A stretch of DNA of 64,000 nucleotides from an uncultured Pseudomonadota bacterium (GCA_963843375.1 CAWJKT010000011.1:160001-224000); one strand, 5' to 3'; positions 6,033 to 64,000 are shown, counted from the first letter of the stretch. Program-made: numbers and translations. The notes: generated by a model from the letters alone, not told the origin.

Positions 6033-6077
6033 GGGAACCTCAGGGTTTCTTTTACCCCAGGCTAAACGATCCGGGAA

Positions 6078-46345: not shown

Positions 46346-46437
46346 TGGCGGAGAGGGAGGGATTCGAACCCTCGAAAGGATGTTACTCCTTTAACGGTTT
46401 AGCAAACCGTCGCCTTCAGCCGCTCGGCCACCTCTCC
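46346..46437 (-). tRNA. tRNA-Ser (GCT)
   Basis: GGAGAGGTGGCCGAGCGGCTGAAGGCG-ACGGT-TTGCTAA-ACCGT, long variable arm, GGTTCGAATCC, CTCTCCGCCA. Confidence 0.97.
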
Positions 46438-46548
46438 ACGTATTCAGCGTGATTTGAAAGTTAAAAATTTTGAGTTGAGGCTATGCTTGATTTTCGTTCA
46501 ATAAAACGAAAATGCCCGGATCTTAAAATTTTTATTTGTTTTAGTAAT

Positions 46549-46635
46549 TGGCGGAGGGTGCAGGACTCGAACCTGCAAGGGGTTTCCCCCGGTGGATTTC
46601 AAGTCCACTGCCTTACCAATTAGGACTAACCCTCC
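46549..46635 (-). tRNA. tRNA-Ser (TGA)
   Basis: GGAGGGTTAGTCCTAATTGGTAAGGCA-GTGGA-CTTGAAA-TCCAC, variable arm, GGTTCGAGTCC, CCCTCCGCCA. Confidence 0.97.
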
Positions 46636-46671
46636 ATCTCCATTAAAACCTACGAAAACCGCGCCTCCAAA

Positions 46672-47775
46672 CTACACACCGGCCATTTTGTTTTCCGGAA
46701 ATCGCTTCTTTGTCATAACCGTGTCATTGAACTGTCTGACACGCCTCAAGGCCTCTTTGCGGTCCTCCCGGTCGATCCTATCGTACCGGCGGAACACCGC
46801 GTGGGTCTTGTGGCCCGAAATGGACATAATGGTCGAGTCGCTTACTCCTGCCTTCCTGAAGTTCGTAACCGCGCAGTGCCGCAGATCATGGAAATGAAAG
46901 TCCGAGATATTAGCACGCTGGCACGCCCTGAGGAAAGCCGTTTTTGGATCTTTCAACCCGTGGCCCCGGAAGTTGAAGACGTAAGGACTGCCCAAAACCT
47001 TGGGCGTCCTCCTGAGAAGGTCGATTAAACCCTCGTCCAGGGGGATTTCCCGCGCTTCCTGGGTCTTCGTGTCCTCGGACTTCAAGGTGATGACGCCTTC
47101 CTTCAAGTCCACCTGGTCCCACTTGAGCCCCGTAATCTCGCCCCGCCTCATGCCGGTGAAATAAGCCAACTGCACGACGGGCCGGTAATGGGGAGAGCAG
47201 TTCTCCAAAAGCCTAAGGTATTCCTCCGGGGTCAGCGTCCGGTTCCGGCAATTTTCCCGGAACATCCTGACGCCATCCACAGGATTCCGGTCGATCTTCC
47301 TGTCCAGCACCGCCCTGCGGGCGATGGTTTTCAGGCAGGCAATCTCCCGGTTCAGGGAAGCGTTTTTCAAACTCTTTCCCTGTTCCTCGGCTTTCTTCCT
47401 CCGCTCCTTCAAAAAATCCTCGACCATGCTGGGGGTCAGGCTTGCCAGGGGCCGCCCTCCGAAATAGACCTTCAAGGCCTTCACGGAGAAAAAATCCCTT
47501 CGGTAGCTCTTCTTCCGGGACTCCGAAAAGGCCAGGAACGCGTCCGCCGCCTCGTCGAAAGTCACCTGTGGTTTCTCGCTGGGCAGGAACTCTCCCGCCA
47601 CGATTTCCTTGGTATGCTCGGCCAAAATCCTCTTGGCCTGGGCCGCCGGAATCTCGCCCAACCTCACCCTTTTGCGCTTCCTCAATCCTCCTTCCATAAT
47701 GAAGTAATCCAGGAAATACCCCTTCGCATCCTTGCGGAGATGTTGGGGCAACCCGTGAACATTAGGCTTGCTCAT
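46672..47775 (-). CDS. Tyrosine recombinase / phage-type integrase
   Basis: TGMRRGEI (R), TKT (K), FHDLRH (HxxR), SGHKT (H), RRY (Y). Confidence 0.96.
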   Translation of the reverse strand: MSKPNVHGLPQHLRKDAKGYFLDYFIMEGGLRKRKRVRLGEIPAAQAKRILAEHTKEIVAGEFLPSEKPQVTFDEAADAFLAFSESRKKSYRRDFFSVKALKVYFGGRPLASLTPSMVEDFLKERRKKAEEQGKSLKNASLNREIACLKTIARRAVLDRKIDRNPVDGVRMFRENCRNRTLTPEEYLRLLENCSPHYRPVVQLAYFTGMRRGEITGLKWDQVDLKEGVITLKSEDTKTQEAREIPLDEGLIDLLRRTPKVLGSPYVFNFRGHGLKDPKTAFLRACQRANISDFHFHDLRHCAVTNFRKAGVSDSTIMSISGHKTHAVFRRYDRIDREDRKEALRRVRQFNDTVMTKKRFPENKMAGV

Positions 47776-48029
47776 AACTGCCTCCTAATGTTGCTCTCAG
47801 CACTGGACATTGTATCAGCCGACAATGCCCCTTGGGAAAGGGGGTTTCTGAAAAGCCTCTCAAACTCCGAGTACCAAACCCTCGGATATTTGCCCATTCG
47901 TACGAAGGGCAAGACGCCGGTCTGTCGCCAATAACGGACGGTATTGACCGATACCTGGGCTTTCTCGGCCACCTCCTGGTCGGTCATTAAATGGTTCCGC
48001 CTTTCGCCGTTCTTCCTGCGCTCCGTCAT
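47772..48029 (-). CDS. Excisionase-like HTH protein
   Basis: LMTDQEVAEKAQVSVNTVRYWRQTGVLPFVRMGKYPR (MerR/HTH_17-like); overlaps the integrase start. Confidence 0.85.
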   Translation of the reverse strand: MTERRKNGERRNHLMTDQEVAEKAQVSVNTVRYWRQTGVLPFVRMGKYPRVWYSEFERLFRNPLSQGALSADTMSSAESNIRRQL

Positions 48030-48412
48030 GGTTTACCTCCGCTTATAAGGTTTAAAAAATAACAGGCCCCAAAGGGGCCACCTTCGGGGAAAGGTGTGGA
48101 AAACCCCGCGTCCAAAACCTGTTTCATTACCAACAGGTGATTCGGGGGGTTTTCCACGGTGTTGGTTTTGCCGTTGCCTTTGACTTTGCCTTTCACCTTA
48201 ATCCTTAAATCCTTTAATCCTTCTTCCTTCGCGCCCGCGCCCACGGGGGTTCGATGGGTCAAGAGGCCAGACCCCACTACCGGTTTCCTGGTCATCATTA
48301 CTGATCCAGGGGGAGTGGGGTCTGGCGTCGCAGGCCAAGCGAACCCCCGTCTTTTGCGGGCGTTTCCATGTTTTTCCGCCATAAGCTGTTTATGGTTCCG
48401 GTTACGGTTCAT
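48026..48412 (-). CDS. Basic hypothetical protein
   Basis: ATGA-type overlaps with both neighbours. Confidence 0.5.
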   Translation of the reverse strand: MNRNRNHKQLMAEKHGNARKRRGFAWPATPDPTPPGSVMMTRKPVVGSGLLTHRTPVGAGAKEEGLKDLRIKVKGKVKGNGKTNTVENPPNHLLVMKQVLDAGFSTPFPEGGPFGACYFLNLISGGKP

Positions 48413-51058: not shown

Positions 51059-51118
51059 ACCGCACCTGGCTTTCCGGAGACCGCCTCCGAGAATAAGCCT
51101 TGCGGTTTTGCGCCGGGC

Positions 51119-51361
51119 TTATTGCTTGGGCGGTTCTCTTTTTGGATCGGATACCCGTCTCTTCCCCGGAGGGAAAAAATAGGCTCTGAGGGCGGCTCTT
51201 AAAACGTCCGCCCTTTTAGTCTTTGGCTTTTTTACCTGTTCTGCTTTCGTCTTTTCGTTTATGGCTTCCAATAATTCAGAGGTAACGTGAAGCATGAGTC
51301 TTATCCCGCCTTCTCCTTCGAGTATTGGACGCCCACGGCCTTGTTTCTTTTTCATGGTCAT
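51119..51361 (-). CDS. Ribbon-helix-helix DNA-binding protein
   Basis: SD GAGGA; GRGRP then IRLMLHVTSELLEAINE...RADVLRAALRAY. Confidence 0.7.
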   Translation of the reverse strand: MTMKKKQGRGRPILEGEGGIRLMLHVTSELLEAINEKTKAEQVKKPKTKRADVLRAALRAYFFPPGKRRVSDPKREPPKQ

Positions 51362-51525
51362 ATCTATATTCCTCTTCGAAAAAATCGTCAATTTTAATCA
51401 ACAGATTAAAGTGTGACGTTTATTCTAAAAGACATTATTTGGAATTTGGAAATTAATTGGGTTTAAAAGGCGGGGTTAATTAAAAGGCATACTTTAAAAA
51501 AATAATTTTTTTAAATAAATAAAAA

Positions 51526-52257
51526 TTAAGGTTTATAACTTTTTTGGATAACATCCTTTAGTTGTTGAATGGTCAACCAAGGTTTTTTTCTGTGTATCAT
51601 TCGATGACAGTTAGCGCAAACGATAGAAAGGTCGTCGATTTTTGGTTTTTGTTCCGATTTCAATTCAGATAAGGGAATGACATGGTGGCACTCTGCGAAG
51701 TATTTTCCTAAGTCTCCATATTTGTCTTCAAATACAAATGTACATACTTCGCATTCCAGTTTTCCACGTTTTTTAATTACGAAGCTTTTTTTCTTTTCTA
51801 CGTTTTCAGGTTTCCGTTCACGATATGAATGTATCCTTGTTAAAATCCTGCCTTCTGGTGCAGTATCCAGTTCTTCTAAGTCTGAAGGTGTTTCAACCTC
51901 CGGATTATCGGGTTTAGCAATGGAGTTTTTTATTGCAACGGCGGTTTTGTTAAGTTCTTCTGGTTTGTCCGAAAATTCCTTCCAGACATCTTTTTCAAGT
52001 TTACTTCCAGCAGTTAGACCCTTGCCTTCGTAAGTTGGGTCATACTTTAAAAAATTACACAACTTCATATAAACACCATTTGGGTTACGGTATTTTTCAT
52101 CGCGAGTGTTAAATTCTTGAAATGGCATCCGATTTAATATTTGACTCAACTCGGTAATCTTGGGATTATTTTTAGAAAAACTTTTCCACTTTTTTTCGGT
52201 AAAATAAAAATCAAGGGCCAGAATTAATTCGTCTCGCGACCAATTAGGATTACTCAC
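51526..52257 (-). CDS. McrA-like HNH endonuclease (putative modification-dependent, type IV)
   Basis: NPNWSRDELILALDFY N-terminal domain; EG...H..RER, CEVC.F.F...YG, ECHH..PL, CANCHRMIH. Confidence 0.85.
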   Translation of the reverse strand: MSNPNWSRDELILALDFYFTEKKWKSFSKNNPKITELSQILNRMPFQEFNTRDEKYRNPNGVYMKLCNFLKYDPTYEGKGLTAGSKLEKDVWKEFSDKPEELNKTAVAIKNSIAKPDNPEVETPSDLEELDTAPEGRILTRIHSYRERKPENVEKKKSFVIKKRGKLECEVCTFVFEDKYGDLGKYFAECHHVIPLSELKSEQKPKIDDLSIVCANCHRMIHRKKPWLTIQQLKDVIQKSYKP

Positions 52258-52273
52258 AAAGTTCTTCTTTCAA

Positions 52274-52663
52274 TCAGAAGATTCCGATTTTCTTTTTAAC
52301 CGCTCCGGGGTTTTTTACAATTTGACATTCCCAAAGGGTAAGCACCCTCCAGCCTTTTTTACGGAGCAACCGTTTTGTTCTCATATCCCTTTTAACATTA
52401 TTTTCAAGTTTTGGTTTCCAGTAGCTAAGTTTTGTTTTTGGCATTCTTCCGTCTTTACAACCCTTATGTTGATGCCAAAAACAACCATGAACGAAAATAA
52501 TCATCTTCTGTGAATCAATGACAAAATCGGGTTTGCCAGGAAGTGCCTTAAGGTTCATTACAAATTTAACCCCTGCGTTTTTTAAAATTTTTTTAACGCT
52601 TCTTTCTGGAAACATACCCTTGGATTTTATGCGTCTCATATTTTCACTTCTGCTAATCAACAT
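52274..52663 (-). CDS. vsr: Very short patch repair endonuclease
   Basis: RSENMRRIKSK...PE, LPGKPDFV, FVHGCFWHQH, YWKPKLENNVKRD, GWRVLTLWEC. Confidence 0.95.
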   Translation of the reverse strand: MLISRSENMRRIKSKGMFPERSVKKILKNAGVKFVMNLKALPGKPDFVIDSQKMIIFVHGCFWHQHKGCKDGRMPKTKLSYWKPKLENNVKRDMRTKRLLRKKGWRVLTLWECQIVKNPGAVKKKIGIF

Positions 52664-53333
52664 AAACCTCCGATTTTAAACCACAATTAACAGCTTCCCA
52701 AAGGTATCTGCTGGCAAGTGTTCTATGAGGCTTCCATTTCAATCCGATTTTCATGACTTGATCTGGCGTGGGCTTCTTTTTTAAAGAGTAGGCAATTTGA
52801 ATACCGCGTTGTAAGCCAATATCAAAACAGGGTAAAACATCCGGTCTTTGCATGTGGAAAATTAAATACATCTCGGCCGTCCATCTTCCGATTCCATTTA
52901 TTCTTTGTAATTCTTCTAAAACAATATTATCAGGCTTGGAATTCAGTTCTTTAAGATTCAATTTTCTTTCTTTTACTGCTTTACATAGATCACGTAAAAA
53001 ACCAATTTTTTGTTTTGATATCCCAATTTTTCTTAGGACTCTAAATGGGGTCCTCAATACTTTGTTTGCTGTTGGATTTTTTCGGGAATATAAAGCGGCA
53101 AAACGTGAAAAGATAGTCCTTGCAGCAGCGCTACTTAATTGTTGCCCAATAATAGCTCTCAATAAAGCTTGCAATGCCGGACGAGGTACTGAACTGATTA
53201 ATGAAAGTTTATTATTTTGAATTGCCTTAACACGCTTAATTAATTTCCCAAGTTTGGGGTCTCTTTTTGATAAATGTTTTTCACCGATTCTTTTCAAAAT
53301 TATTTCCTGTCTAAGAATGTTCGGAATGGCCAT
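52653..53333 (-). CDS. AlkA/Mag-family HhH-GPD DNA glycosylase
   Basis: RAIIGQQLSSAAARTI, INGIGRWTAEMYLIF...RPDVLP..DIG, WKPHRTLASRYLW. Confidence 0.92.
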   Translation of the reverse strand: MAIPNILRQEIILKRIGEKHLSKRDPKLGKLIKRVKAIQNNKLSLISSVPRPALQALLRAIIGQQLSSAAARTIFSRFAALYSRKNPTANKVLRTPFRVLRKIGISKQKIGFLRDLCKAVKERKLNLKELNSKPDNIVLEELQRINGIGRWTAEMYLIFHMQRPDVLPCFDIGLQRGIQIAYSLKKKPTPDQVMKIGLKWKPHRTLASRYLWEAVNCGLKSEVYVD

Positions 53334-53435
53334 CAATTATCAAAACACCTGTTACAAAACAGGGCAACATATACACCCTAACAATACCATGTTAAACTTT
53401 CGCAATCACAGATTCCGTTCTAAAGGCATTTTTTA

Positions 53436-54095
53436 ATGACATTTAACGAATACAAAAAAATGCTTCCGAAAAACTTAAGCATCGTTAAAGAGAAAATTCT
53501 TAAACGTCTTTGGGAAGAGGGAGATAAATTTCCTAAAGGATGGGTTAAAAGTTCCGAATTGCTTTCGATTACAAAGCAAAAGTACTTTGACAGAAGAACT
53601 CGCGAATTGCGGGATGAAATGGGTTGCGATATCGAAACAAAGATTATTGAGGCCGAACACAGCTATCGATTAAATTCCCCAAAAATAAACATATCTAATC
53701 CACGACATTATTTACCAAATAATCAAAAAGAAATCCTATTTGAAAAAAATAATTTCACCTGTTCAGTTTGTGGAAAAAAATACAAAAAAGAAGAAAAAGG
53801 ACTCCAATCTGATCATAAGATTCCATTAATGCGTGGCGGAACCAACGAAGAAAGCAACTGGCAACCACTCTGTGTGGAATGCAACGTAATTAAAAGAAGG
53901 GCTTGCGCTGGTTGTAAATTGGATTGTAAAACTTGTTCCTGGGCTTTTCCTGAAAAAATCTCTGCAAGGACACTTATACAGTTGCCCCCTAAACTTAATC
54001 AGTATTTATATGAACATTGTAAAAACGAAAACCAAACTTTAAGTGAATTTGTAGCTGAGGCTATTGAACAATATAAAACTAAGAACGAAGATTAA
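53436..54095 (+). CDS. HNH type II restriction endonuclease candidate (FseI-like), C-terminal RHH-like segment
   Basis: YFDRRTRELRDEMG N-terminal motif; CSVC...QSDHKIP..RGG.....N.Q.LC.ECN..KR.AC.GC...C..C.WAFPEK; convergent with a C5 methylase. Confidence 0.75.
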   Translation: MTFNEYKKMLPKNLSIVKEKILKRLWEEGDKFPKGWVKSSELLSITKQKYFDRRTRELRDEMGCDIETKIIEAEHSYRLNSPKINISNPRHYLPNNQKEILFEKNNFTCSVCGKKYKKEEKGLQSDHKIPLMRGGTNEESNWQPLCVECNVIKRRACAGCKLDCKTCSWAFPEKISARTLIQLPPKLNQYLYEHCKNENQTLSEFVAEAIEQYKTKNED

Positions 54096-54128
54096 AAATC
54101 CGAACAAATTCAATTCTCAAATTTGTTT

Positions 54129-55145
54129 TTAATAAGATGCTGCTCTTTCCATCATTTCCAATAATGGTTCTTTCAAACCCATATAAGCTGGAACAATCTT
54201 TCTATTACCACATAAGGCCCTATTAATTTCTTTTCCAACAGCCTTTGCAACTGGTGGAGGAAAGGCGTTACCAACTTGTCTATACGCAGCAGTTTTACCT
54301 CCAACAAATTTCCAGCTATCAGGAAACCCCTGTAAACGGGCAACCATTTGAACTGTCAATTTAGGACGTGCATTTTTGGGAAAATCTGAGGGAGGTGGGA
54401 AATTAGCAATTCCTAATCCATCAACACCAAGGTGTGACCATTGTTCTTTGGCTCTAGTAGGGCCAAGATCAGGTCCTCCATGTTTTTTTGATCCACCAAC
54501 TATTGTTGGAGCAATTCCATTTGCAACTTTTACCCATTTTTTAGCTCCGGCCCATCCATTCGAGGTCATCAAGTCTAGTAATTCATAGCCAACGGTTTTT
54601 TCACACTTTTTAGGCTTAGGCCATGTGAATTTATCGGCATCTTCTCTAAGTAACGCAACTAAAATGAATCGGGGTCTTAATTGTGGGACATTGTAATCTG
54701 ATGCATTAAGCATTCTCCAATCGGCTCGGTAACCCAGGTCATTTAGAGAATTTAAAATATTTTTTCGATAACTGACGAATTTTTGGCTGGCCAAACCTTT
54801 TACATTTTCCAACATGACCGCTCGGGGCCTAATCTCGGAAACTAAACGTAAAGCATCGGGAAATAAATCGCGTTCATCCTTAGCTCCAAGTTGTTTACCT
54901 GCGATTGAGAAGGGTGGGCAAGGGACTCCGCCGGCAAGGAGATCAATTCCTTTGTAAGGCTTCCCATTAAAATCATGCAAGTCACCTTCAATTACATTCC
55001 ATTCAGGTCTGTTTACCCGCAGAGTTTTACAAGCATGGGGATCAATTTCTACAACAGCGACATGGTTAAAACCCGATTGTTCCAACCCAAGTGCTTGGCC
55101 ACCGCCTCCGGCACATATTTCTAAAGAAGTTAACGAATGCTTCAA
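54129..55145 (-). CDS. DNA (cytosine-5) methyltransferase, NgoMIV/NaeI/FseI-like
   Basis: EICAGGGG, GGVPCPPFS, ENV, QLRPR, target-recognition region APTIVGGSKKHGGPDLGPTRA, RQVGNA. Confidence 0.93.
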   Translation of the reverse strand: MKHSLTSLEICAGGGGQALGLEQSGFNHVAVVEIDPHACKTLRVNRPEWNVIEGDLHDFNGKPYKGIDLLAGGVPCPPFSIAGKQLGAKDERDLFPDALRLVSEIRPRAVMLENVKGLASQKFVSYRKNILNSLNDLGYRADWRMLNASDYNVPQLRPRFILVALLREDADKFTWPKPKKCEKTVGYELLDLMTSNGWAGAKKWVKVANGIAPTIVGGSKKHGGPDLGPTRAKEQWSHLGVDGLGIANFPPPSDFPKNARPKLTVQMVARLQGFPDSWKFVGGKTAAYRQVGNAFPPPVAKAVGKEINRALCGNRKIVPAYMGLKEPLLEMMERAASY

Positions 55146-55215
55146 GTTAGTCCCTCTGAAAGGTATACACTTGTATTTATCCTACCAAAAATTTTATTTT
55201 TTTAAAACTTTTAAG

Positions 55216-56874
55216 TTATATAAAAGTTTTAAGCGCTAATTGCGCAAGATAAACACTCCTTTGATTAATCGACGTTTCATCCCAAGTTAAATATTTTCCA
55301 CCTATTTCCTTGGTTAATTCAATTTTCGAATCGTTGTAAATAACCACCTTTTCCTCAAAACTACTATTGGCCGCCTTTTGATTTTTTCTTGGGCCAAGCA
55401 AAGTGAGATTTCCTAAACGCCAAAGGAAAGGCTCCAAAACCGAACGATTTGACCAAGTTCCGCTTTTTGGATTTTGAGGAAAAATGTGCTCTAAATTTAC
55501 ATTGCCTTTTGCTGTTGTTTCAATTTTCTTCCCTTTTTCAATTCCGGATAAATATCGCAAGATCCATTTTGATGCGTTGGAATCAAAATCATTTTCTTGA
55601 ACACTAGAAAGAACTTGTTGATTGGTTGGCATCTTCTCTCTTAGCTTAGTACAAACAAATTGAGCTTTTTGTCCATCATTTATTGATTTTGCTTCCAAAT
55701 AAAAAGCATTCTCTAAATATTTTGTATCAATATTTCCGGCAAGCTTAAATCTTACCGAAAAAACAGCGACAGCTTTAACAATCTTTGAAAAATCAGAAAT
55801 ACCATATTTGTTAAGCGCACTCATAAGAAGCGGCATCGAATTAAAGTATTTAAAAGCGTTTAAAATCCCAGCCAAATAAATTTTTGTATTTTCATCAAAT
55901 TCCGCATCATGATCAAAATCCAATATTCTTGTGTATGCTTCGGCGCCCAATTCCAAATGTCGGGAATACTTAACACTATCTAATCCTTTTGTTTGAAGGC
56001 TTTTTTTGATTTTTCTATATAAACTCGATGCCTTTTCATCACCGTGCTGTGACACCCAAAAATGCCTTAAAAATCTTTGTACATCGATTGGACCAAGCGT
56101 GCGAAGCATATTATCCCATGTTCCTCGGACCCGATTGTGCTCACCTTTATTTGAACATTTTTGCATCAATAGATTTAGTAAAAGGTCCGGGGCAGATAAT
56201 CGCATTCCGCGATCATTCAATGATTCAAAAATCGCAAAAGAATCAGCGAAGTCACTTATTTTTATTCCAATTACTATTACACCATTCGCCAAACAATCCC
56301 GAATATCTTCTAATCGTTTTTCCCAACGACCACCCGTTTTCTTCGGCAATTCTTGTTTAATTCTTTCTAATATCTTTTCATAAGCATCTTTTAAAAGCTT
56401 ATGAGAACGGATTTTTGAAGTGCCAATAGTTGCTTCAAAATCTTGAATGTTATTTAAAAAAAAGATTTTATCGACTTCACCAAGAACTAATGAATATTGA
56501 GAATTTCTTTCGTTTTTTAAAATAAAATCTCTATGAATATCTCTCGCTAATTGATTTTCTTTGCTAAATTCCTTTGCCAAATTACGAAGAGCACAAAACA
56601 TTATGGTAGCGGTTGTAATACGTTGCTGACCATCCAAAAGGGAAATTTCATTGCTCTTTTCCTGAAGGACTAAGGGTCCAAGGAAATATTTGGATGCTAT
56701 AGATTTCTGTTTGTAAACTTTTTCAAATTCAAAAAAATCATTAAGAAATGCTTCGATTCTATCTTTATCCCAGCTAAAACCTCTTTGATAAACCGGTAAG
56801 AAGATAGAGCGAGTTTCATTTCTGCCTAAAAGTCTTCCAAATGAATAGTTTGCTGCCTCAAAGGTGCTTGGCAT
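55216..56874 (-). CDS. DUF262-DUF1524 protein (GmrSD/SspE-like)
   Basis: LPVYQRGFSW, LDGQQRITT, IFESLNDRG, NLEHIFPQ, LGNLTLL...N. Confidence 0.92.
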   Translation of the reverse strand: MPSTFEAANYSFGRLLGRNETRSIFLPVYQRGFSWDKDRIEAFLNDFFEFEKVYKQKSIASKYFLGPLVLQEKSNEISLLDGQQRITTATIMFCALRNLAKEFSKENQLARDIHRDFILKNERNSQYSLVLGEVDKIFFLNNIQDFEATIGTSKIRSHKLLKDAYEKILERIKQELPKKTGGRWEKRLEDIRDCLANGVIVIGIKISDFADSFAIFESLNDRGMRLSAPDLLLNLLMQKCSNKGEHNRVRGTWDNMLRTLGPIDVQRFLRHFWVSQHGDEKASSLYRKIKKSLQTKGLDSVKYSRHLELGAEAYTRILDFDHDAEFDENTKIYLAGILNAFKYFNSMPLLMSALNKYGISDFSKIVKAVAVFSVRFKLAGNIDTKYLENAFYLEAKSINDGQKAQFVCTKLREKMPTNQQVLSSVQENDFDSNASKWILRYLSGIEKGKKIETTAKGNVNLEHIFPQNPKSGTWSNRSVLEPFLWRLGNLTLLGPRKNQKAANSSFEEKVVIYNDSKIELTKEIGGKYLTWDETSINQRSVYLAQLALKTFI

Positions 56875-56983
56875 TTTTGGTCCTAGTTTTAATTTGCACA
56901 ATCAATTTAGAAGGTAAATTCTAATCTAGCATTATTCTAATTTTTTTTATAAGAAAAAGGTTTTCTATTGGATACAAATTTCA

Positions 56984-57017
56984 AAAACCCAAAAGCCCAT
57001 AAGGGCTTTTGGGTTTT
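56984..57017 (-). terminator. Rho-independent terminator downstream of radC
   Basis: AAAACCCAAAAGCCC-ATAA-GGGCTTTTGGGTTTT perfect 15-bp stem. Confidence 0.8.
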
Positions 57018-57027
57018 AATTTTGGTC

Positions 57028-57519
57028 TTAAATTAAGAGTCCGGCTTGGCGGAAGGAAAAATGCCCTTCGTGGGTAACTATCAAGTGGTCATGGACCGTG
57101 ATGCCCAAAGCCCTGGCGGCGGTCAAAATCTGGCGGGTTAAAGCCTTGTCTCCTTCGGAAGGTTCCAAGCTTCCGGCAGGGTGGTTATGGCTGAAAATAA
57201 TCCCCGTTGCGTCCAATTCCAGGGCCTTCTTGAGGACTTCACGGGGATAAACGGCGGTATGGTCTACAGTCCCTTCCTGGTTTAAAACCACATCTAAAAC
57301 GTGGTTCCGATGGTCAACGTACATGGTCATAAATGCCTCGTTCCGCTTCCCTCCGATGTACTGTTTGAAATACGCCACTACATCCTCCGGGCCTGAAACA
57401 ACCGGCCCTCTTTTGTAGTCCGCCCTGGCCTCTGCCCAAGAAATCGGTGGAACGGTCGGCGGTGGCACCGCCTTAACGTCGAACTTCATCTCCTCTTCCT
57501 GCACTTTGCTTGTTTTCAT
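57028..57519 (-). CDS. radC: RadC-like JAB domain protein (short mobile-element type)
   Basis: E.F, GTVDHTAVYPREV, SHNHPAG...PSEGD, VHDHLIV. Confidence 0.92.
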   Translation of the reverse strand: MKTSKVQEEEMKFDVKAVPPPTVPPISWAEARADYKRGPVVSGPEDVVAYFKQYIGGKRNEAFMTMYVDHRNHVLDVVLNQEGTVDHTAVYPREVLKKALELDATGIIFSHNHPAGSLEPSEGDKALTRQILTAARALGITVHDHLIVTHEGHFSFRQAGLLI

Positions 57520-57546
57520 CTCCGTGGCTCCTTCTGATGGAGCGCG

Positions 57547-57768
57547 CTCCGGGCCGCCCCTTCACCAACCGGATGAGGGGCGGCCCGGAGAATTTGGCCG
57601 ATAGATAGTGGAGATCACTCTCTATCGGCGCTTAATTGTTTTCGAGTTTTCCGAGGGAGTGCGATAGCGAAGCGACAGCATCCCAGGCCTGGTGACCCGG
57701 ACACGCTTTAGGTGTCCGAGGGCAGGCGACCGGTCGCCAAGGCTGGTCGGAATCAGGAGAAAACAGCC
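57547..57768. other. GC-rich cluster of inverted repeats
   Basis: 15-bp perfect IR 57547-61/57576-90; stem 57597-57629; palindromes 57683-92 and 57725-38; 7-bp stem 57698-57718. Confidence 0.8.
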
Positions 57769-57892
57769 AATCGTAGCCATTTCTCGCTCTTGTCCTGCAA
57801 AATATTTGTCTTATTGTTTGTAGCGTTACCTTTTGTGCCTTGGTCTCGCCTAATGAAGTGAGGGGAAACACGCCGGTCCAAAGAGGTTCATA

Positions 57893-58519
57893 GTGACGGG
57901 TGACGAAGAATCAAAATTATTGGCCGGGCTGAGGGAAAGCGACCCCAAGGCACAAAAACAATTTTGGTCAATTTATTACAACCAAATATTTGGACACGTT
58001 CAAACGTCCCTCGCCAAAGGGCATTCCAAGGAAGACTCCGAGGAAATAGTAAGCGAGGTATTTCGACGTATTTTTCGGGACATTAAATCGTTTCAGGGAA
58101 CCAGCACCCTGAAAACGTGGATATTTACGATTGTTAGACACGTCGCAGCAGAACATTACCGGCCCCAACGGAATGAATACACGGCCCACGCACCAGAAAA
58201 GTTCACTGAGTTTTCCGAAGAGACGGTTCCCAACAAGCTCGATGAAGGGAAGCCTATCGAGGCAGCCCTGGACGAATTGGAGAGGAAAGAGCAGTTTTCC
58301 AGTGTTCTTTCACTTTTGGACGAACTAGAAACGCAACAAATCCAAACAGTTTCTTATCGCATCCTCCAGGGAATGTCCGTCAAAGAGACCTCGGATGTCA
58401 TGGGCATTTCTGAGGGCGCGGTCAAAATGTCTTTTTATAGGGCGGTGCTCAAACTCAAGGATCTTGCAGCTTCGCGAAGAGACCTTGACGATTTCACCTC
58501 AACACAAGGAGGGAAATAA
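57893..58519 (+). CDS. ECF-type sigma-70 family factor
   Basis: Region 2 EDSEEIVSEVF...FQGTSTLKTWIFTIVRH; region 4 GMSVKETSDVMGISEGAVKMSFYRA. Confidence 0.9.
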   Translation: MTGDEESKLLAGLRESDPKAQKQFWSIYYNQIFGHVQTSLAKGHSKEDSEEIVSEVFRRIFRDIKSFQGTSTLKTWIFTIVRHVAAEHYRPQRNEYTAHAPEKFTEFSEETVPNKLDEGKPIEAALDELERKEQFSSVLSLLDELETQQIQTVSYRILQGMSVKETSDVMGISEGAVKMSFYRAVLKLKDLAASRRDLDDFTSTQGGK

Positions 58520-59313
58520 TGAACAAGAAATATAACGATGCTGAAAAAGCGGAAATTGTTTCCCAGTTCATCGACCAAATGAACTTGTCTGGCTCTGCTT
58601 CAATTGAGATTTTTCTAGAAGAGTACCCTGAGCTTTCAAATGAGCTCGAACCTCTTTTAGGACTTTCATTGGATTTGAAAAAAGACTTTCAAAAAACGTA
58701 TTTGGCAAATGAAGAGGTTGAGAAGAAATTTTTAAAATTTTATGAAAAGCCGACCGCGAACCGGAATCAGGTTGTTGCGGTTGCCTTAGATCAGCGTCCC
58801 GATTTTATGTTGCTCTTACTTAAGATGATGGATGGCGTAAAAGGTGTTACTAGGTTAACGAAATTGTTGTTTTTGATGGGGAAAGAAGCCCGTTTCGATC
58901 AATACGTTAACAATTACTACGCCCATGCCGCCGATAATTTTGGACCGTTTGATGATGTTATTTTCCAAGATATCGAAGCCCTCAAGAAAGTCGGTTTCAT
59001 AACAGAAGAGAATCTTGTTTTAAAAAGCGACGATGAGGATTCGAAATACGAAGGCCAACTTTATCCAAATAAAGTGCAAAAGAATTATGAACTGACTGAT
59101 AGCGGCAAAAAATTCACGGAAGAACTATTCAAAAAGGTTGAGCAGACAAGGCCAGAAGTCATCAACGATCTAAAAAAGATAATTAGTAAATATGGGAAGC
59201 TGTCTTTAAAGAGTCTTTTGACCCGTGTTTATACAGATTATCCGGAATACACAGTCAAATCGAAAATAAAAGACCAAATATTGGGGAATAAGAAAGATGA
59301 AAAAAAGAATTAA
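58519..59313 (+). CDS. Putative sigma-partner N-terminus fused to YwgA/Panacea(DUF4065)-like wHTH domain
   Basis: TAATG coupling to the sigma gene; IEIFLEEYPELSNELEPLL; GVTRLTKLLFL...NFGPFD..IFQDIEAL...GFI...YELT..G...LL..VY..YPEY..KS.I. Confidence 0.6.
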   Translation: MNKKYNDAEKAEIVSQFIDQMNLSGSASIEIFLEEYPELSNELEPLLGLSLDLKKDFQKTYLANEEVEKKFLKFYEKPTANRNQVVAVALDQRPDFMLLLLKMMDGVKGVTRLTKLLFLMGKEARFDQYVNNYYAHAADNFGPFDDVIFQDIEALKKVGFITEENLVLKSDDEDSKYEGQLYPNKVQKNYELTDSGKKFTEELFKKVEQTRPEVINDLKKIISKYGKLSLKSLLTRVYTDYPEYTVKSKIKDQILGNKKDEKKN

Positions 59314-59731
59314 GGAAAGACAACTTTTGAAACCGGTGTGTCGGTTGTTTCCGAAACTTGTTCCTGTCACTGAGTTCCCGTTCAAAGGGAAGCTTATTGA
59401 TGTCTTGTTTATTAAAAGGAAAACAGGAAAAGGAAATTTAATAGCTATCGAATTGAAAATAAAAAAGTGGAAAAAGGCAATGCGGCAGGCTGCGGTATAT
59501 CAGTTGTTCGCGCATAAGGTTTACATAGCGCTCCCCAACGATCGATTAAACGACAGGGTGTTGGAAACTGTTACGAACCAAGGGATAGGAGTTATATCGA
59601 TCGACTTAGAAAAGAAATTACTGAAAGCCAAAATTGTGAGAAGACCAAAGCCCACAAACTTCTTAAACAAAAAGTACACAGAAGAAGTCTTGGATTTAAT
59701 TAAGAAATCCAAATATGTGGGGGTCGGATGA
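59297..59731 (+). CDS. Small PD-(D/E)XK nuclease-fold protein
   Basis: E...ID...AIELK...WKKAMRQA..Y..FA..VY.A.P...GIG. Confidence 0.78.
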   Translation: MKKRIKERQLLKPVCRLFPKLVPVTEFPFKGKLIDVLFIKRKTGKGNLIAIELKIKKWKKAMRQAAVYQLFAHKVYIALPNDRLNDRVLETVTNQGIGVISIDLEKKLLKAKIVRRPKPTNFLNKKYTEEVLDLIKKSKYVGVG

Positions 59732-61029
59732 AATTTCCAGCCAAACAGCCCATCGTTTATATTCGGCCTCGTCAGACCGATAAACAATTATTGGAAGATC
59801 CAAGGATTATTGGGCATTACCAGGGAATCCACATGCCGGCAACAGCTCCAGATGGAGTCAGAGAAATGATCCGTAATCTTGGCAAGCCAACCTTTATTGA
59901 TCCTGATACGTATTTTTACTCCTTGCCGCTTAAACGTTTATTTGCGGAAGAGAAAAAAACATTCAAACCAAGTATCGGAAGGTTGTTTGGGGAATATCAA
60001 AGCATCGGGGACGTTAGTGTTACCTCATCCCGTACGATTCCCGGAAATCCGTCCGAGATTCAGTTCTTTGTAAGGCGAGTCTTGGAATTTCAAAATAGCC
60101 GTTTGAACGGCCAAACAACTTTGGTGAATGCAAATTATTCCAAATATGCCGATTGGCAAAAAAGCTATGGAGAAGTTGTTAATTACGAGACCTCGACATC
60201 TGAACCAGAATTCCTAATACCGCCTTATTTTTACTTTGATAAACATGACAATGAAAAATACAAGTTGTCATTGGCATGCGCAAAAGCTGCCCTTCGTTCG
60301 AGACCAACGGGAAGTTCCATTTACCCGGTTATCTTTTTCTCAAAAGTCTTGCTTAAGAAGGGAGATGTAATACAAAAAATTGTTGATGACTATCTTGGAT
60401 TATCCGCGGACGGATTCATCCTTTGGATTAATGATTTCAAAGAAGAAAAAGAGCCGTTAGAAACTCTACTTGGGCTTTCTGCTTTAGTTAAGAATATTTC
60501 AGGGTCCAGAAAGCCGGTCCTGAAGTTGTTTGGCGGATATTTTTCACTTTTGCTTTCTCTAAATGGATTGACTGGTTTTTCATGTGGGTTGGGCTATGGG
60601 CAATCGAAAAATGCTTTCGCTTATGGTGCGAAGATGCGCGGGAAGTTTGAACCGAAGTATTACATCCAAGCTTTACATCGGGGTGTGGAGTTACCTGATG
60701 CCGAAAGATTAATACGATCTATTCCAGAATTGAGATGCTCCTGTGTTGTTTGCCAAAAGACTTTCGGTAGGAATTTTGACAATTTTTCAAAGATGAGCGA
60801 AGCCGGTATGTGCGAATGCCATTTTCTAAATGCGCGGCGACAGGAAATTAAAGAAATCATGGAAAAAGGCAAAGACTATATCTCCAGCTCAATCAAATTG
60901 ACAGCGAACTCATTCCAAATGAATTCATTAGTTGATGTTCGTGCTTTGAAAAATTGGGCCATGGTTTTGGATGAAATGGATCAAGCGGCAGGATCAAAAG
61001 TAATTAATATAAAAAGGTCCGGGGGGTGA
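59728..61029 (+). CDS. TIM-barrel protein with TGT-like CxCxxC...H Zn site
   Basis: ATGA overlap; FIDP.TY, LIPPYF, DGFILW, GFSCGLG, KYY...LH, CSCVVC...HFLNAR. Confidence 0.6.
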   Translation: MKFPAKQPIVYIRPRQTDKQLLEDPRIIGHYQGIHMPATAPDGVREMIRNLGKPTFIDPDTYFYSLPLKRLFAEEKKTFKPSIGRLFGEYQSIGDVSVTSSRTIPGNPSEIQFFVRRVLEFQNSRLNGQTTLVNANYSKYADWQKSYGEVVNYETSTSEPEFLIPPYFYFDKHDNEKYKLSLACAKAALRSRPTGSSIYPVIFFSKVLLKKGDVIQKIVDDYLGLSADGFILWINDFKEEKEPLETLLGLSALVKNISGSRKPVLKLFGGYFSLLLSLNGLTGFSCGLGYGQSKNAFAYGAKMRGKFEPKYYIQALHRGVELPDAERLIRSIPELRCSCVVCQKTFGRNFDNFSKMSEAGMCECHFLNARRQEIKEIMEKGKDYISSSIKLTANSFQMNSLVDVRALKNWAMVLDEMDQAAGSKVINIKRSGG

Positions 61030-61034
61030 TATCA

Positions 61035-61166
61035 GTGGCAAATTTTTTAGCTTTCAGGCCAAAAACTAAAACTAAAAGACCTGTCGAGTTCAAAACATCG
61101 AACGGTCAAAAAGTCCAATTCAATGCGAAGAGAAAACCGTTGAGAAGGACTAGGGTGAAGTTTTAA
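61035..61166 (+). CDS. 43-aa highly basic peptide (not in ORF track)
   Basis: GGGGGTG SD-like sequence then GTG; MANFLAFRPKTKTKRPVEFKTSNGQKVQFNAKRKPLRRTRVKF*. Confidence 0.5.
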   Translation: MANFLAFRPKTKTKRPVEFKTSNGQKVQFNAKRKPLRRTRVKF

Positions 61167-61218
61167 GAGGCAGGTTATTAATAAAAACCCGCTCTCCAAA
61201 AGTTGAAAGGAGTAAGCC

Positions 61219-61428
61219 ATGGGAAGGTTTCATTACAATCCGAAAGGATATCCCGTCTGGAATGACAGTGGAAAATTGGTTCATAGAACTGTGGCCAAAC
61301 CCAAAGGGAATCAAGTCACCCATCATATCGATGGGAATCCCAAGAACTTCAGAAGAGACAATCTGGTCAATATGAGCCCAAGTGAACATGCGAAACTTCA
61401 TGCGAGAGAAAGAAGGCGGCCTATGTGA
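61219..61428 (+). CDS. Minimal HNH endonuclease
   Basis: SD AAAGGAG; KGY...VHR.VA...HHIDGNPKN...DNL......EH..LH. Confidence 0.8.
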   Translation: MGRFHYNPKGYPVWNDSGKLVHRTVAKPKGNQVTHHIDGNPKNFRRDNLVNMSPSEHAKLHARERRRPM

Positions 61429-61503
61429 AGGCCTAGAAAGGGTTTGGGGCAAGGCCCCAGGAGAAGGGGGTGTGCCGAGGATCGGCAAAGCCAGCCGAGG
61501 CCA

Positions 61504-61522
61504 GGGGGAAGGCTTTCCCCCC
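61504..61522. terminator. Possible terminator hairpin between convergent genes
   Basis: GGGGGAA-GGCT-TTCCCCC. Confidence 0.45.
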
Positions 61523-61529
61523 AAAGAAA

Positions 61530-63158
61530 TTATTTTTTAGGATAAAGATTTCTAATTATTTTTGGGATATTTACTTGAGCTAGATATGTTTCGCAAAACT
61601 CAGCCGCTCTCGGATTCTCTTTTAAAACGTCTCTGGTGAATAAAATCAGTGATTCTTCCTTCAAATTACGAACCAAATCCGCGAAAACTTCACCTACATG
61701 CCAACGATTATGGGATAAAGCAAGTATGGGCAGGCGTTTTAATATTAGAAAATGGATTTCATTATCTGTGGTCCAGTTGAATATTTTTTTGTAAAGGTTG
61801 GCGATTACATCACAGTAATCAAACCCGACCTCATCGATGTAAGAATCGTAAGATTTTAAAACCTGTTTAAATATCGTTGGTTGTTTTTCAATCATACATT
61901 TAAAAATTGGTTCTGGAATTTTTGGAAATATTTGAATCATTGCATCGGAGTTATCTGTAACGTCCAAAATTGACTTAGCAAAATCTTCGATTTCTTTGTT
62001 AGATATACGCTCTTTGTCTTTGAGTTCTCTCGCAGTTTTCAAAATACTCTCTGCGGATTTTTCAAACTCGAAACCGTCTCCGAGTAGTAAATTTAAATCT
62101 TTTAAAAACACTTGAACACTTTGGTATCTCTGCTTCGGGTCACTGTGAGTTGCTTTATTAATTAAATAGAAAAATTTTCTTGGGATTAAATCAAAATCCA
62201 AAGTGGGGTATGGACTTTTACCAGAAAGTATTTGATACAGAAGTTTTCCTAAGGAATAAATATCAGCAGGTTCTCTGGCGCTTTTGGCGTCTTCCCATTG
62301 TTCAGGGGCGACGTATCCTATTGTTCCAATAGGAAAATTAGAAAGTGTTACGGAGGGAGAATCTCGATCAATAAATTTCCCTAAACCGAAATCCGAAATA
62401 GTCGGGAAAAGACCTTTGCCTTCCTGATTTGGAAAAAGCAATACGTTTAATGGTTTCAAATCCCTGTGAATAACGCCTTTGGAATGGGCAAATGAAACGC
62501 CCTCAGCTATTTGTAAAAAAAGAGGAATTTGTTTTTCTCCGTGGTTCTTTTTTAAATATTCCTCTAAGTTAAAGTATGCTTTTGGCATTACAAACCAGGG
62601 AAGTGAAGCTTCAAGGTCCATATCTAAAATGGGAACAATATTTTTGTGCTTTAATTGGGATTGAATTCTTACCTCTCTTTTAAATCGCCTAACATCTTCC
62701 TCTTCGTGATCCTCTTTTAAAAACTTCATTGCGTAAATAGTTCCGTCTTTTCCAACAGCTTCATATACTTCACCAAAGCCACCATTGCCAATTAAGCTCT
62801 TCAAGGAATATAGATTTCTTTTTGGGCTTGAGGGTTTTTGGGATTCTTTTTCTTTGTCCGAGTAGTTCTTCTGAACAACAAATTCGACTGAAACAACTTC
62901 TGGTTCATGATCTTGAAGAGGATATATGCCACGCACCATTTCAAGAATTAGTTTTTGGTCCTCAACGCTAATTTTTTTTGTTTTAACGTAATCTTTTGGA
63001 GGAAGGTAAATGATGAAATCTGAGATTAAGGAAAATAACCGGCTTCCATATTGGTTTGATACCCGTAATTCGCTTGAGGCATCTTCAAAGATTTCCGATA
63101 AATCTTCACGGCCTTCCGCGTTCAAAAGATCAATAAGAGTTTTTATATCTTCATCCAT
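61530..63158 (-). CDS. Soluble Hanks-type Ser/Thr protein kinase with extra N- and C-terminal domains
   Basis: GNGGFGEV, YAMK, HRDLKPLN, DFGLGK, GTIGYVAPE, DIYSLG; no TM helix. Confidence 0.93.
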   Translation of the reverse strand: MDEDIKTLIDLLNAEGREDLSEIFEDASSELRVSNQYGSRLFSLISDFIIYLPPKDYVKTKKISVEDQKLILEMVRGIYPLQDHEPEVVSVEFVVQKNYSDKEKESQKPSSPKRNLYSLKSLIGNGGFGEVYEAVGKDGTIYAMKFLKEDHEEEDVRRFKREVRIQSQLKHKNIVPILDMDLEASLPWFVMPKAYFNLEEYLKKNHGEKQIPLFLQIAEGVSFAHSKGVIHRDLKPLNVLLFPNQEGKGLFPTISDFGLGKFIDRDSPSVTLSNFPIGTIGYVAPEQWEDAKSAREPADIYSLGKLLYQILSGKSPYPTLDFDLIPRKFFYLINKATHSDPKQRYQSVQVFLKDLNLLLGDGFEFEKSAESILKTARELKDKERISNKEIEDFAKSILDVTDNSDAMIQIFPKIPEPIFKCMIEKQPTIFKQVLKSYDSYIDEVGFDYCDVIANLYKKIFNWTTDNEIHFLILKRLPILALSHNRWHVGEVFADLVRNLKEESLILFTRDVLKENPRAAEFCETYLAQVNIPKIIRNLYPKK

Positions 63159-63185
63159 AATTTTCTCTTTTTTATGAAAGGAGTT

Positions 63186-64000
63186 TTACAGGTCTAATAC
63201 TTTCCTTAAACGGGTGGATTGTTCTTGTCGCTTCTTAGCGGTCATTCGGCGGATATTTTCAAGCTTCCACCGCAAACCCGGCAATCGCTCGATGTCAGGC
63301 AAGCCTAAGAGGTTCCAATCTGGTTCTCCATCCTTGAGAGACAGCAAAAACTTCTTTTCCGAAACGGTCAAGCTTTTATGGATAAGGCGAAGTAATTCAT
63401 CCCTGGTTTCCACCAAATGTTTTAGGTCAATGGGTTCAAGGGTCATCCCTTTGAATTCTTTTTCAAAGGTGGGCTTCATGTCCTTCAATTTAGGCTTAAG
63501 CAGTTCATTCATGGGTCTGTCGTGGCTTGCTAGGTAAATAACAAACGCCCGACGGATTTCATCAGTCAATCCCTCGTTCTCCAATAGAAGTTTAATATCA
63601 AAAAAATCTCTTGGGTGTTGGCGGTCCAGGGCCGCGCAAATTTTTCCGCCGTAAAGATCGGCCAAAGATAAGAGCCGCGCGGATACCGAAAGCTCAAACA
63701 TTTCCTCGGCCTTATGGCAAAGGGTGGCTTGGACAGGGGGATAAATGGTCCCTCTTAGAACTAAGTTAGGCTCAACCTTAATCGTGGCTTCTTGGTGCCG
63801 GACGGTTAGTTTTACCGTGTGGTCGGTGCCTTTTAGTCGTTGTTCTTCGACTTGTGCACCCAAGACCCGTCTGACCTGGGTGGCGACTTCCTTGAGCGAC
63901 TTTGAAATATCAGCCAGGGCTTCTTCCCTGGTATTCAGCGGAAGATAGGTAAGGTCGATATCAACCGAAAGCCTCGGCATATCCCGGACGAAAAGATTGA
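63186..64000 (-). CDS. AbiEii/AbiGii nucleotidyltransferase toxin (5' end outside window)
   Basis: INLFVRDMPRLSVDIDLTY, IKVEPN...RG, GGKICAALDRQHPRDFFD. Confidence 0.92.
   Translation of the reverse strand, partial: NLFVRDMPRLSVDIDLTYLPLNTREEALADISKSLKEVATQVRRVLGAQVEEQRLKGTDHTVKLTVRHQEATIKVEPNLVLRGTIYPPVQATLCHKAEEMFELSVSARLLSLADLYGGKICAALDRQHPRDFFDIKLLLENEGLTDEIRRAFVIYLASHDRPMNELLKPKLKDMKPTFEKEFKGMTLEPIDLKHLVETRDELLRLIHKSLTVSEKKFLLSLKDGEPDWNLLGLPDIERLPGLRWKLENIRRMTAKKRQEQSTRLRKVLDL

Follow-up and report, generated by a model that had tools for sequence, protein, structure and literature searches.

What does a protein with the fold of a tRNA-guanine transglycosylase (TGT) do when it shares a mobile operon with a sigma factor, an antitoxin-like protein and a small nuclease-like protein? 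The question is raised by a cassette of four genes in a 64,000-nt stretch of DNA from an uncultured Pseudomonadota bacterium (GCA_963843375.1 CAWJKT010000011.1:160001-224000), called the window below and numbered from its first letter. Listing of open reading frames (ORFs) with translation table 11 places the four genes on the same strand:

57893..58519, + strand: extracytoplasmic function (ECF)-type sigma-70 factor of 208 amino acids (aa), first gene of the operon (from Pfam and NCBIfam)
58519..59313, + strand: two-domain Panacea-like protein, 264 aa (from PADLOC, phrog and Pfam matches of orthologs)
59297..59731, + strand: PD-(D/E)xK-fold protein, 144 aa (from fold search and invariant residues)
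59728..61029, + strand: TGT-fold (beta/alpha)8-barrel zinc protein, 433 aa (from an AlphaFold2 model and fold search)

The ends of successive genes overlap, by 1, 17 and 4 nt. A preliminary description of this DNA had picked out the last two frames, as a TGT-like protein coupled to a nuclease; both are real, down to the 4-nt overlap, and they form the second half of an operon that starts at 57893 and whose two upstream genes had been overlooked.

The four-gene operon, horizontally acquired, is probably an undescribed defence or toxin-antitoxin module. With a probability of about 0.45, the cassette can be read more precisely as a mobile conflict module under Panacea control, of a toxin-antitoxin-like or abortive-infection type; the known kinds that underlie it are Panacea-controlled modules and TGT-fold proteins in defence. 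This reading draws on the overlaps within the operon, the core pair of genes, the identity of the Panacea-like protein, a predicted complex, the coupling to a sigma factor and natural nuclease fusions, together with a modularity typical of conflict systems (as in loci L022-L024), the mobile and defence-related context and a conserved pocket. No description of the 433-aa family or of the cassette was found in the literature, the supplements of two Panacea papers aside.

A core pair with exchangeable partners

Related loci number 26, two in genomes, 23 in metagenomes and one in IMG/VR, and their ORFs were compared with the four window proteins. A Panacea-like gene stands upstream of the TGT-like gene in all 22 loci with enough upstream sequence, either immediately or with nothing but the nuclease gene and/or one for a membrane protein in between; L009, L019, L021 and L025 are uninformative on this point. 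Of the 24 loci informative for the nuclease, 13 have it and 11 do not. The sigma gene is present in 12 loci and visibly absent in six (L001, L008, L010, L012, L023, L024), the other eight being uninformative for it. Another arrangement is found in L022-L024, where the order is Panacea-like gene, membrane-protein gene, nuclease and TGT-like gene, with no sigma gene seen; the membrane protein has three hydrophobic helices:

L022, 954-1586: ~210-aa three-helix membrane protein, weak DUF3902 matches
L023, 1212-1838: ~210-aa three-helix membrane protein, weak DUF3902 matches
L024, 1378-2004: ~210-aa three-helix membrane protein, weak DUF3902 matches

By these counts, the Panacea-like and TGT-fold proteins are the invariant core of the cassette, and sigma factor, nuclease and membrane protein are swappable accessories.

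The Panacea-like protein gives the core its antitoxin character. Panacea is described, in the part of PMC8832971 drawn on here, as an experimentally established antitoxin domain that neutralises many unrelated toxins by direct binding. The 264-aa protein matches the PADLOC candidate-defence model PDC-M19A (2.3e-14, residues 93-260) and phrog_14939 (6.5e-10), and Pfam SocA_Panacea (PF13274) matches three of its 14 orthologs, with a best value of 4.6e-06. Its ESM Atlas neighbours score at most 0.82 and were not used. Two domains can be distinguished: an N-terminal helical domain of ~60-85 aa, present only in sigma-linked copies, and a C-terminal Panacea-like domain at ~88-264. The layout recalls the PanA-PanT systems, in which a Panacea protein is likewise encoded beside an unrelated partner that it binds (a binding that is predicted here) and which likewise occur on mobile elements (PMC8832971, same part). 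The cassette differs from PanA-PanT in having a partner with a TGT fold, a sigma-linked N-domain in place of the helix-turn-helix (HTH) domain and up to four genes. In the searched passages of PMC8832971 and PMC10440598, supplements aside, no TGT-fold Panacea partner was met.

Direct contact within the core pair is supported by modelling. The TGT-like protein was combined with residues 88-264 of the Panacea-like protein, each with its own unpaired alignment. The three runs scored 0.62, 0.67 and 0.65 by ipSAE, and none of three controls scored above 0.00; 116 of 157 solved complexes and two of 215 mismatched pairs reach the threshold of the tool, figures that hold approximately for user-supplied alignments. 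The runs share at least 60% of their contacts, with a partner pLDDT (predicted local distance difference test) of at least 79. In the predicted interface, helix 133-149 of the TGT-like protein packs against Panacea residues 88-94, 154-160 and 194-199; the docked helix is the stretch that has a pLDDT below 50 in the monomer model. The Panacea domain is thus predicted to bind the TGT-fold protein by clamping helix 133-149.

The first gene of the operon ties the cassette to transcription. The 208-aa protein is an ECF sigma factor with regions 2 and 4 only: its Pfam matches are all above cut-off (Sigma70_ECF 4.1e-11, Sigma70_r2 9.7e-09, Sigma70_r4_2 3.8e-09), and the NCBIfam sigma70-ECF model TIGR02937 gives 1.8e-20, with 73.2 bits against a cut-off of 42.9. 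In the Panacea-like protein, the N-terminal motif [LIV]S.[FY][VI]D.[LM] is present in 13/13 sigma-linked copies (the window, 11 loci and L041) and in 0/8 others, six of which are visibly without sigma. This co-variation suggests that the N-domain may be sigma-binding and anti-sigma-like. At the position of the motif, the Panacea-like proteins of L001, L012 and L013, with no visible sigma gene, have H-x3-C-x2-C, which we take to be a zinc anti-sigma signature. ECF sigma/anti-sigma pairs share with the cassette the order of a sigma gene followed by an overlapping gene, and an N-domain that co-varies with the presence of sigma; in the cassette, the putative anti-sigma domain is joined to a Panacea-like domain in place of a membrane or sensor domain.

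The strict tie between N-domain and sigma factor also speaks for a different role, in which the cassette would serve the mobile element as a sensory or regulatory switch, for instance over lysogeny, induction or superinfection. Sigma would then deliver the response. The TGT-fold protein would sense a nucleobase or nucleic-acid cue without catalysis, and the Panacea/anti-sigma protein would be a relay that passes on the signal by releasing sigma, with the nuclease as an optional accessory. Such a switch is unlikely, and it would not exclude a conflict module. It sits poorly with the six core-pair loci in which sigma is visibly absent, with the membrane protein that takes its place in L022-L024, and with the record of Panacea domains as toxin neutralisers (PMC8832971, in part).

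The third gene product has no informative match in Pfam, NCBIfam, PADLOC, PHROGs or, by phmmer, the PDB sequences, and a word-indexed search found only the protein itself; it can be assigned through its orthologs and its predicted structure. Eleven orthologs of the 144-aa protein, recovered from gene neighbourhoods, have seven invariant residues: E7, D35, E52, K54, W58, Q64 and Y76. Among these orthologs there are weak Pfam matches to six PD-(D/E)xK families in all, namely MTES_1575 (4/11, best 2e-04), YhcG_C (3/11) and, in one ortholog each, HSDR_N, SfsA, NERD and Hjc. The AlphaFold2 model (pLDDT 89.2) matches SPO1766 (3dnx) with a VIA-align Z of 12.9 and, in Foldseek, at 3.1e-06 with a TM (template modelling) score of 0.68; the nuclease domain of PaqCI (8em1) follows with a Z of 11.2 and NucS (2vld) with 9.4, and further structural matches include XisH, Can2, SfsA, NucS/EndoMS and many restriction enzymes. 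The assignment as a PD-(D/E)xK nuclease is sound at the level of the predicted fold, and to that extent the 'nuclease' of the preliminary description is borne out by the match to 3dnx and the invariant D35/E52/K54.

In two distant relatives, P0078 (560 aa) and P0089 (557 aa), a nuclease domain is fused N-terminally to the TGT-like domain; this domain aligns with the 144-aa family at 99.3% probability in hhalign (E 1e-20) and at 41% identity in BLASTP (6e-18). These natural fusions argue that the nuclease and the TGT-fold protein work together and, for a regulatory switch, suggest an effector over a pure sensor. With the fusions and the homologs in 13 of 24 loci, the coupling that had been proposed for the pair is real. 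Licensing of the nuclease, proposed with it, cannot be the core role of the TGT-like protein, because the nuclease is absent from 11 of those loci; the Panacea-like gene is the one found in 22 of 22.

For the conflict module, the following mechanism can be proposed. The Panacea-like protein would be an antitoxin-like holder of the TGT-fold effector, and its N-domain would sequester the sigma factor. An invader that titrates, modifies or destroys the holder would free the TGT-fold protein, and the sigma factor would raise expression of the operon. Once free, the TGT-fold protein would bind a nucleobase or nucleic acid in a remodelled pocket and either remove the base hydrolytically, by Asp58/Glu239 chemistry, or merely recognise it; where the PD-(D/E)xK partner is present, the nucleic acid would be cut. 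The outcome would be arrest of the cell or of the invader. Toxicity, trigger, sigma sequestration and substrate are here what we infer.

A TGT fold with a different pocket

The second member of the core pair belongs to a family that sequence profiles do not name. The 433-aa protein falls into no family of Pfam (E up to 0.1), NCBIfam or PADLOC, and its entries in PHROGs and, by phmmer, among the PDB sequences are at chance level; PF01702, the hidden Markov model (HMM) for TGT, fails on it, and the same model finds the canonical TGT of the host at 5.5e-159. The family itself is large: a word-indexed search gave 32 clusters at E <=0.001, all of them lacking a precomputed Pfam domain, and an exhaustive phmmer search of 1.84 billion representatives gave 681 at E <=0.001, 456 at 1e-10 and 50 at 1e-30. 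No above-cut-off Pfam match was found in any of 21 distant relatives, or 22 members with the window copy included. A search for the TGT-like protein within longer fusions (759-2165 aa) found none, a negative that the tool itself rates as weak evidence. In one related locus (L014, 457-1629), the TGT-like frame is interrupted and reads as two ORFs, at 457-1167 and 1204-1629, which may be due to a frameshift, a pseudogene or an assembly error.

The predicted structure places the protein. The AlphaFold2 model, built on a 28-sequence alignment, has a mean pLDDT of 84.5 and a pTM (predicted TM score) of 0.85. In a Foldseek search of the PDB, ranks 1-38 are all TGT/QTRT1 (best E 3.9e-05, TM 0.42-0.57), and DpdA holds rank 39. 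VIA-align gives a Z of 21.0 with archaeosine TGT (1iq8; 300 aligned residues, root-mean-square deviation 3.5), 19.3 with bacterial TGT (3unt), 17.5 with QTRT2 (6fv5), 16.5 with DpdA (7ui4) and 14.9 with Cap10 (9ntn_B), against 12.6 for the best unrelated TIM barrel. Bacterial and archaeosine TGTs and DpdA, the best structural matches, are (beta/alpha)8 barrels with an inserted CxCxxC...H zinc subdomain, as is the 433-aa protein in its model. Its zinc ligands are C337-x-C339-x2-C342...H365 (C337-S-C339-V-V-C342), kept in 155, 158, 159 and 159 of 161 family members respectively, and the family profile aligns them with the zinc motif of 1iq8, at a marginal E of 0.061. On its modelled structure, the 433-aa protein therefore belongs to the TGT/DpdA superfamily at the level of the fold, and both the TGT-like nature and the TGT-type zinc motif claimed for it earlier hold.

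The catalytic residues present a different picture. Three active-site aspartates are invariant in TGT and DpdA (Asp95, Asp130 and Asp256 in DpdA), serving as the general acid/base in DSGG, the base-recognising residue and the nucleophile, and exchange by DpdA is abolished by Asp95Ala or Asp256Ala (PMC10164549, in the part used here). In the 433-aa family, D58 is the sole Asp conserved at >=75% (151/161), a count independent of any alignment to TGT. Correspondences with TGT come from hhalign comparisons of two profiles of the family with 12 canonical TGTs from relatives of the host. The alignments are colinear over 303 columns (probability 1.4%, E 0.038) and 317 columns (5.6%, E 0.0069) and are weak; the two profiles agree on the strands, which are matched as follows (433-aa family first, canonical TGT second):

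GIHMPA: TPxYMPVGT
FIDPDTY: ILLANTYH, the strand before DSGG
IPPYF: AFDEC
KLFGG: YLMGVG
GFSCG: MFDCV

FIDP is present at residues 55-58 and DSGG is absent, as the preliminary description had it. The placing of FIDP at the DSGG position is not borne out: both low-probability alignments set FIDPDTY against the preceding strand, and in the better of the two profiles the DSGG loop faces a gap. In the same weak alignments, the DEC of TGT faces P165-P166-Y167, and position 285, opposite the nucleophile Asp, is Ser in 99, Cys in 30, Val in 12 and Ala in 10 of the 161 members. A match of E239 to the Glu in the GGxxVGE loop of TGT appears in one alignment and not in the other, and is not relied on.

A set of other residues is strongly conserved among the 161 members: D58 as above, P166 in 161, Y167 in 152, W233 in 145, E239 in 136 (with Asp in nine more), K/R294 in 155 and Y312 in 157; P59, Q122, F168, E373 and W410 are further conserved positions. 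In the AlphaFold2 model, D58, P166-F168 and W233 lie at or just after the predicted strands 55-58, ~163-170 and 230-235. If these are parallel barrel strands, as the TGT alignments suggest, the residues lie at the usual active-site face of a TIM barrel. D58 may map to a ribose-pocket Asn of TGT. From these patterns of conservation it is concluded that the 433-aa protein would have a functional pocket but not TGT chemistry. Its sequences do not indicate catalytic membership of TGT/DpdA, and a canonical transglycosylase is unlikely, with one near-invariant Asp set against three invariant ones in TGT and DpdA (PMC10164549, in part); a glycosylase or a modified-base reader are possibilities.

The loss of the aspartates weighs directly on the idea of a DpdA-like modification and restriction pair. 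The TGT-like protein would exchange or insert a base in the DNA of the element or in tRNA, from precursors made elsewhere in the genome, and the PD-(D/E)xK protein would restrict unmodified DNA. The shared fold and zinc subdomain (DpdA Z 16.5), the fusion of the nuclease in some relatives and the mobile, defence-related setting favour such a pair; with a canonical TGT and QueF encoded elsewhere in the host genome, a supply of 7-deazaguanine precursors is possible. Against it stand the Asp triad that is invariant in TGT and DpdA, of which Asp95 and Asp256 are required for DpdA activity (PMC10164549, in part), the single conserved Asp of the family (D58), the Ser, Cys, Val or Ala at the aligned nucleophile position, the missing match to PF01702, the 11 of 24 loci that lack the nuclease, and the neighbours scanned, among which there is no DpdB-like ATPase or preQ0-synthesis gene. 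A modification pair of this kind is distinctly unlikely.

The earlier claim that queuosine and Dpd genes are missing can be given a more exact scope. PADLOC found no Dpd model among nine proteins around the cassette, folE, queD, queE and individual dpd genes not having been searched for across the 64 kb, and Pfam found no Dpd-type gene among 54 neighbour proteins of the related loci. The QueC-like and QueF matches of the host genome lie on contigs other than that of the cassette (C1, C9, C6). QueF and TGT are present in this genome, which is 80% complete, and no stand-alone QueC was found in it. The sole matches to the QueC model (G000 C1:217289-217483 and C9:227207-227392, with 23.9 and 22.5 bits) are short N-terminal stretches in open frames of ~630 aa.

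Two known proteins illustrate how a TGT fold can be put to other uses. QTRT2, the eukaryotic TGT subunit and third-best match of the 433-aa model, has lost its catalytic residues and acts as a binding partner; it pairs with a catalytic TGT paralog on tRNA, and the 433-aa protein with a Panacea-like protein and a nuclease. The loss of the catalytic Asp as in non-catalytic QTRT2, together with a strongly conserved pocket, would suit the sensor of a regulatory switch; the conserved pocket also sets the family apart from QTRT2. Cap10, from type IV cyclic-oligonucleotide-based anti-phage signalling systems (CBASS), is a TGT fold recruited to anti-phage defence with remodelled protein-binding surfaces; it keeps D73, S74, D122 and the catalytic D248, and its partners are a QueC-like Cap9 and a cGAS/DncV-like nucleotidyltransferase (CD-NTase) (bioRxiv 10.1101/2025.04.06.647259, in part). 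These partners and residues are absent from the cassette. Unlike TGT and DpdA, the 433-aa protein is encoded among scanned neighbours with no queuosine or Dpd partner.

Within the conflict-module reading, a more detailed and tentative version, on balance doubtful as a whole, is that the TGT fold has been re-tooled as an effector, a zinc-stabilised barrel held by a Panacea protein that doubles as anti-sigma, so that loss of the holder would free effector and sigma factor together. The pocket of Asp58/Glu239/Lys-Arg294/Tyr167/Tyr312/Trp233 would remove a base of tRNA, rRNA or DNA hydrolytically, or capture a modified base of the invader, and the PD-(D/E)xK nuclease would cut the damaged nucleic acid. 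If true, Panacea control coupled to a sigma factor would be seen here for the first time, in a new system of anti-phage or toxin-antitoxin type. In the characterised members that were checked (TGT, archaeosine TGT, DpdA and Cap10), the same aspartate chemistry swaps 7-deazaguanines; the 433-aa family departs from this, keeping the fold and the zinc site with a different pocket, and travelling on mobile elements in the company of a nuclease, a sigma factor and a partner of antitoxin type. As an effector it would introduce an enzymatic or sensing activity that is new among bacterial conflict systems, and a new class of Panacea partner, and the sigma link would be a new wiring of conflict modules to transcription; as a scaffold only, it would be the bacterial equivalent of QTRT2. 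Being small and self-contained, the cassette lends itself to tests in Escherichia coli.

Mobile setting and the regulatory alternative

The cassette of the window lies in the cargo of an integrative element, whose features are:

46346..47775, - strand: left end of the carrying integrative element, a tRNA-Ser pair and an integrase
46346-46437 and 46549-46635: two tRNA-Ser genes (ARAGORN, Rfam tRNA)
46672-47775, - strand: tyrosine integrase (Pfam Phage_integrase, 1.8e-26)
49262-51058, - strand: TraG/TraD-like coupling protein (Pfam TraG-D_C/TrwB)
~51000 to beyond 64000: low-GC defence cargo
3' of the cassette: HNH_3 remnant, 69 aa
61530-63158, - strand: Ser/Thr kinase, 542 aa, convergent with the cassette (PADLOC mad6 1.1e-52, PD-T4-6 and Stk2 models)

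The cargo runs in the order HNH, Vsr, HhH-GPD, HNH, Dcm, GmrSD, RadC, cassette, HNH_3 remnant, Ser/Thr kinase and AbiEii/AbiEi, the element being read across 46346-64000 of the window and L040 1-900. The GC content is 0.33-0.45 across 51-64 kb, except for 0.52 at 57-58 kb, and 0.43-0.61, mostly ~0.5, upstream of ~51 kb. No kinase is kept beside the cassette in the scanned neighbours of the related loci; ECF sigma factors of the cassette's type (Pfam Sigma70_ECF) can be regulated by kinases.

The distribution of the TGT-like gene fits with such a setting. By family profile it is present in one of 99 genomes of the host phylum (none of 60 of high quality) and absent from a genome of the same genus. 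Each of 13 genomes, that of the window and those of 12 relatives, has a canonical TGT, with the host copy on another contig. The scattered presence of the one and the constant presence of the other indicate that the TGT-like gene is an acquired accessory, not a paralog for host tRNA modification.

The surroundings of the related loci give the regulatory switch its positional evidence. In L002, L015, L016 and L024, the gene just upstream of the cassette encodes an integrase or serine recombinase, and phage-like PDDEXK_1 and AAA_24 genes lie downstream in L002, L015, L016 and L017; in favour of a switch, the cassette is placed between integrase or recombinase and co-directional early phage-like genes (L002, L015, L016, L017), and a second sigma/HTH gene follows 3' of it in L016 and L017. 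In L041, the cassette stands at the end of an 82.6-kb viral contig from IMG/VR. The copy in the window tells against a switch, with defence genes as its neighbours and no phage genes nearby.

Several points weigh against the conflict module as preferred here. In four loci the cassette lies between an integrase and early phage-like genes, which fits a regulatory role in a phage equally well. The locus counts overstate independent support, since L003-L006, L008/L010, L017/L018 and L001/L012 are near-duplicates; independent lineages among the 26 loci number ~15-20. The Panacea assignment, made from sequence, comes through the orthologs and a PADLOC candidate model to which no function is assigned, and the window's own 264-aa copy has no Pfam Panacea match at E up to 1. 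The motif of the N-domain was written after the alignment had been viewed and is descriptive, not blind; in the host genome, an HMM of the domain met no further copy that could serve as a paralogous sigma-linked example, and the putative sigma-binding role is read from co-occurrence. The complex score is a measure of model confidence, obtained from separate, unpaired alignments. The TGT-fold protein, with none of the known catalytic residues, may be a non-catalytic scaffold like QTRT2 and not an effector. Any toxicity, neutralisation or protection against phage is putative, as are nuclease activity and ligand binding.

Phage P4 and further features of the loci

A resemblance to the beta-protein/sce7725 and sce7726 nuclease pairs had also been proposed, and phage P4 offers the comparison. 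Adjoining its integrase are the genes for the 133-aa gop, the 355-aa beta ('beta family protein') and the 264-aa cII ('sce7726 family protein'); gop-beta-cII protects against lambda and P1 (PMC9122126, in part) and is triggered by a phage gene (bioRxiv 10.1101/2023.04.06.535777, in part). Like the cassette, this is an integrase-adjacent system of a mobile element in which a small D..ExK..Q domain stands beside a barrel-sized protein. The N-terminus of P4 cII (L026 1746-2540, - strand) has the typical PD-(D/E)xK pattern D43..E55-I-K57..Q69, with which D35..E52-L-K54..Q64 of the 144-aa protein is colinear, at non-significant values (E 0.017-0.02, probability 2-3%). Among the ESM Atlas neighbours, a cluster at rank 26 (score 0.89) carries PF26915 Phage_P4_cII in 48% of its members.

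That the cassette is a homolog or distant variant of gop-beta-cII is nevertheless very improbable. The test set for the beta proteins consisted of the P4 proteins and four further Beta_protein loci from the host phylum. The Pfam model Beta_protein (PF14350) matches neither the 433-aa protein nor the host genome, and gave no match in the control genomes either; the TGT-like family reaches an hhalign probability of 1.3% against P4 beta and 0.2% against a 5-sequence beta alignment, and NCBIfam gives no sce7725 or sce7726 match among the cassette proteins. The 433-aa family has a zinc motif that beta proteins, as far as the alignments show, lack. No gop homolog can be set on either side, no search for one having been made. 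The likeness is thus upheld as architecture and not as homology; by sequence comparison, a distant link is possible for the nuclease only.

Further features lie around the cassettes. Between RadC and the sigma gene of the window, at ~57540-57590, there is a GC-rich, near-perfect hairpin (ccgggccgcccct...aggggcggcccgg) without an Rfam family match; an Rfam scan of 46-64 kb found the two tRNAs and nothing else. A scan of 57400-61600 for sigma-70 promoters and terminators gave sites no more numerous than in shuffled sequences. In L007, Prok-E2_E and ThiF (E2/E1-like) genes lie directly 3' of the cassette, at 5035-6960, and may be another defence system in a shared island. Upstream of the cassette of the window, at 52274-55145, a Dcm-type C5 methylase is grouped with repair and nuclease genes (those of Vsr, an HhH-GPD glycosylase and an HNH protein), and the cluster may form a separate restriction-modification-like unit.

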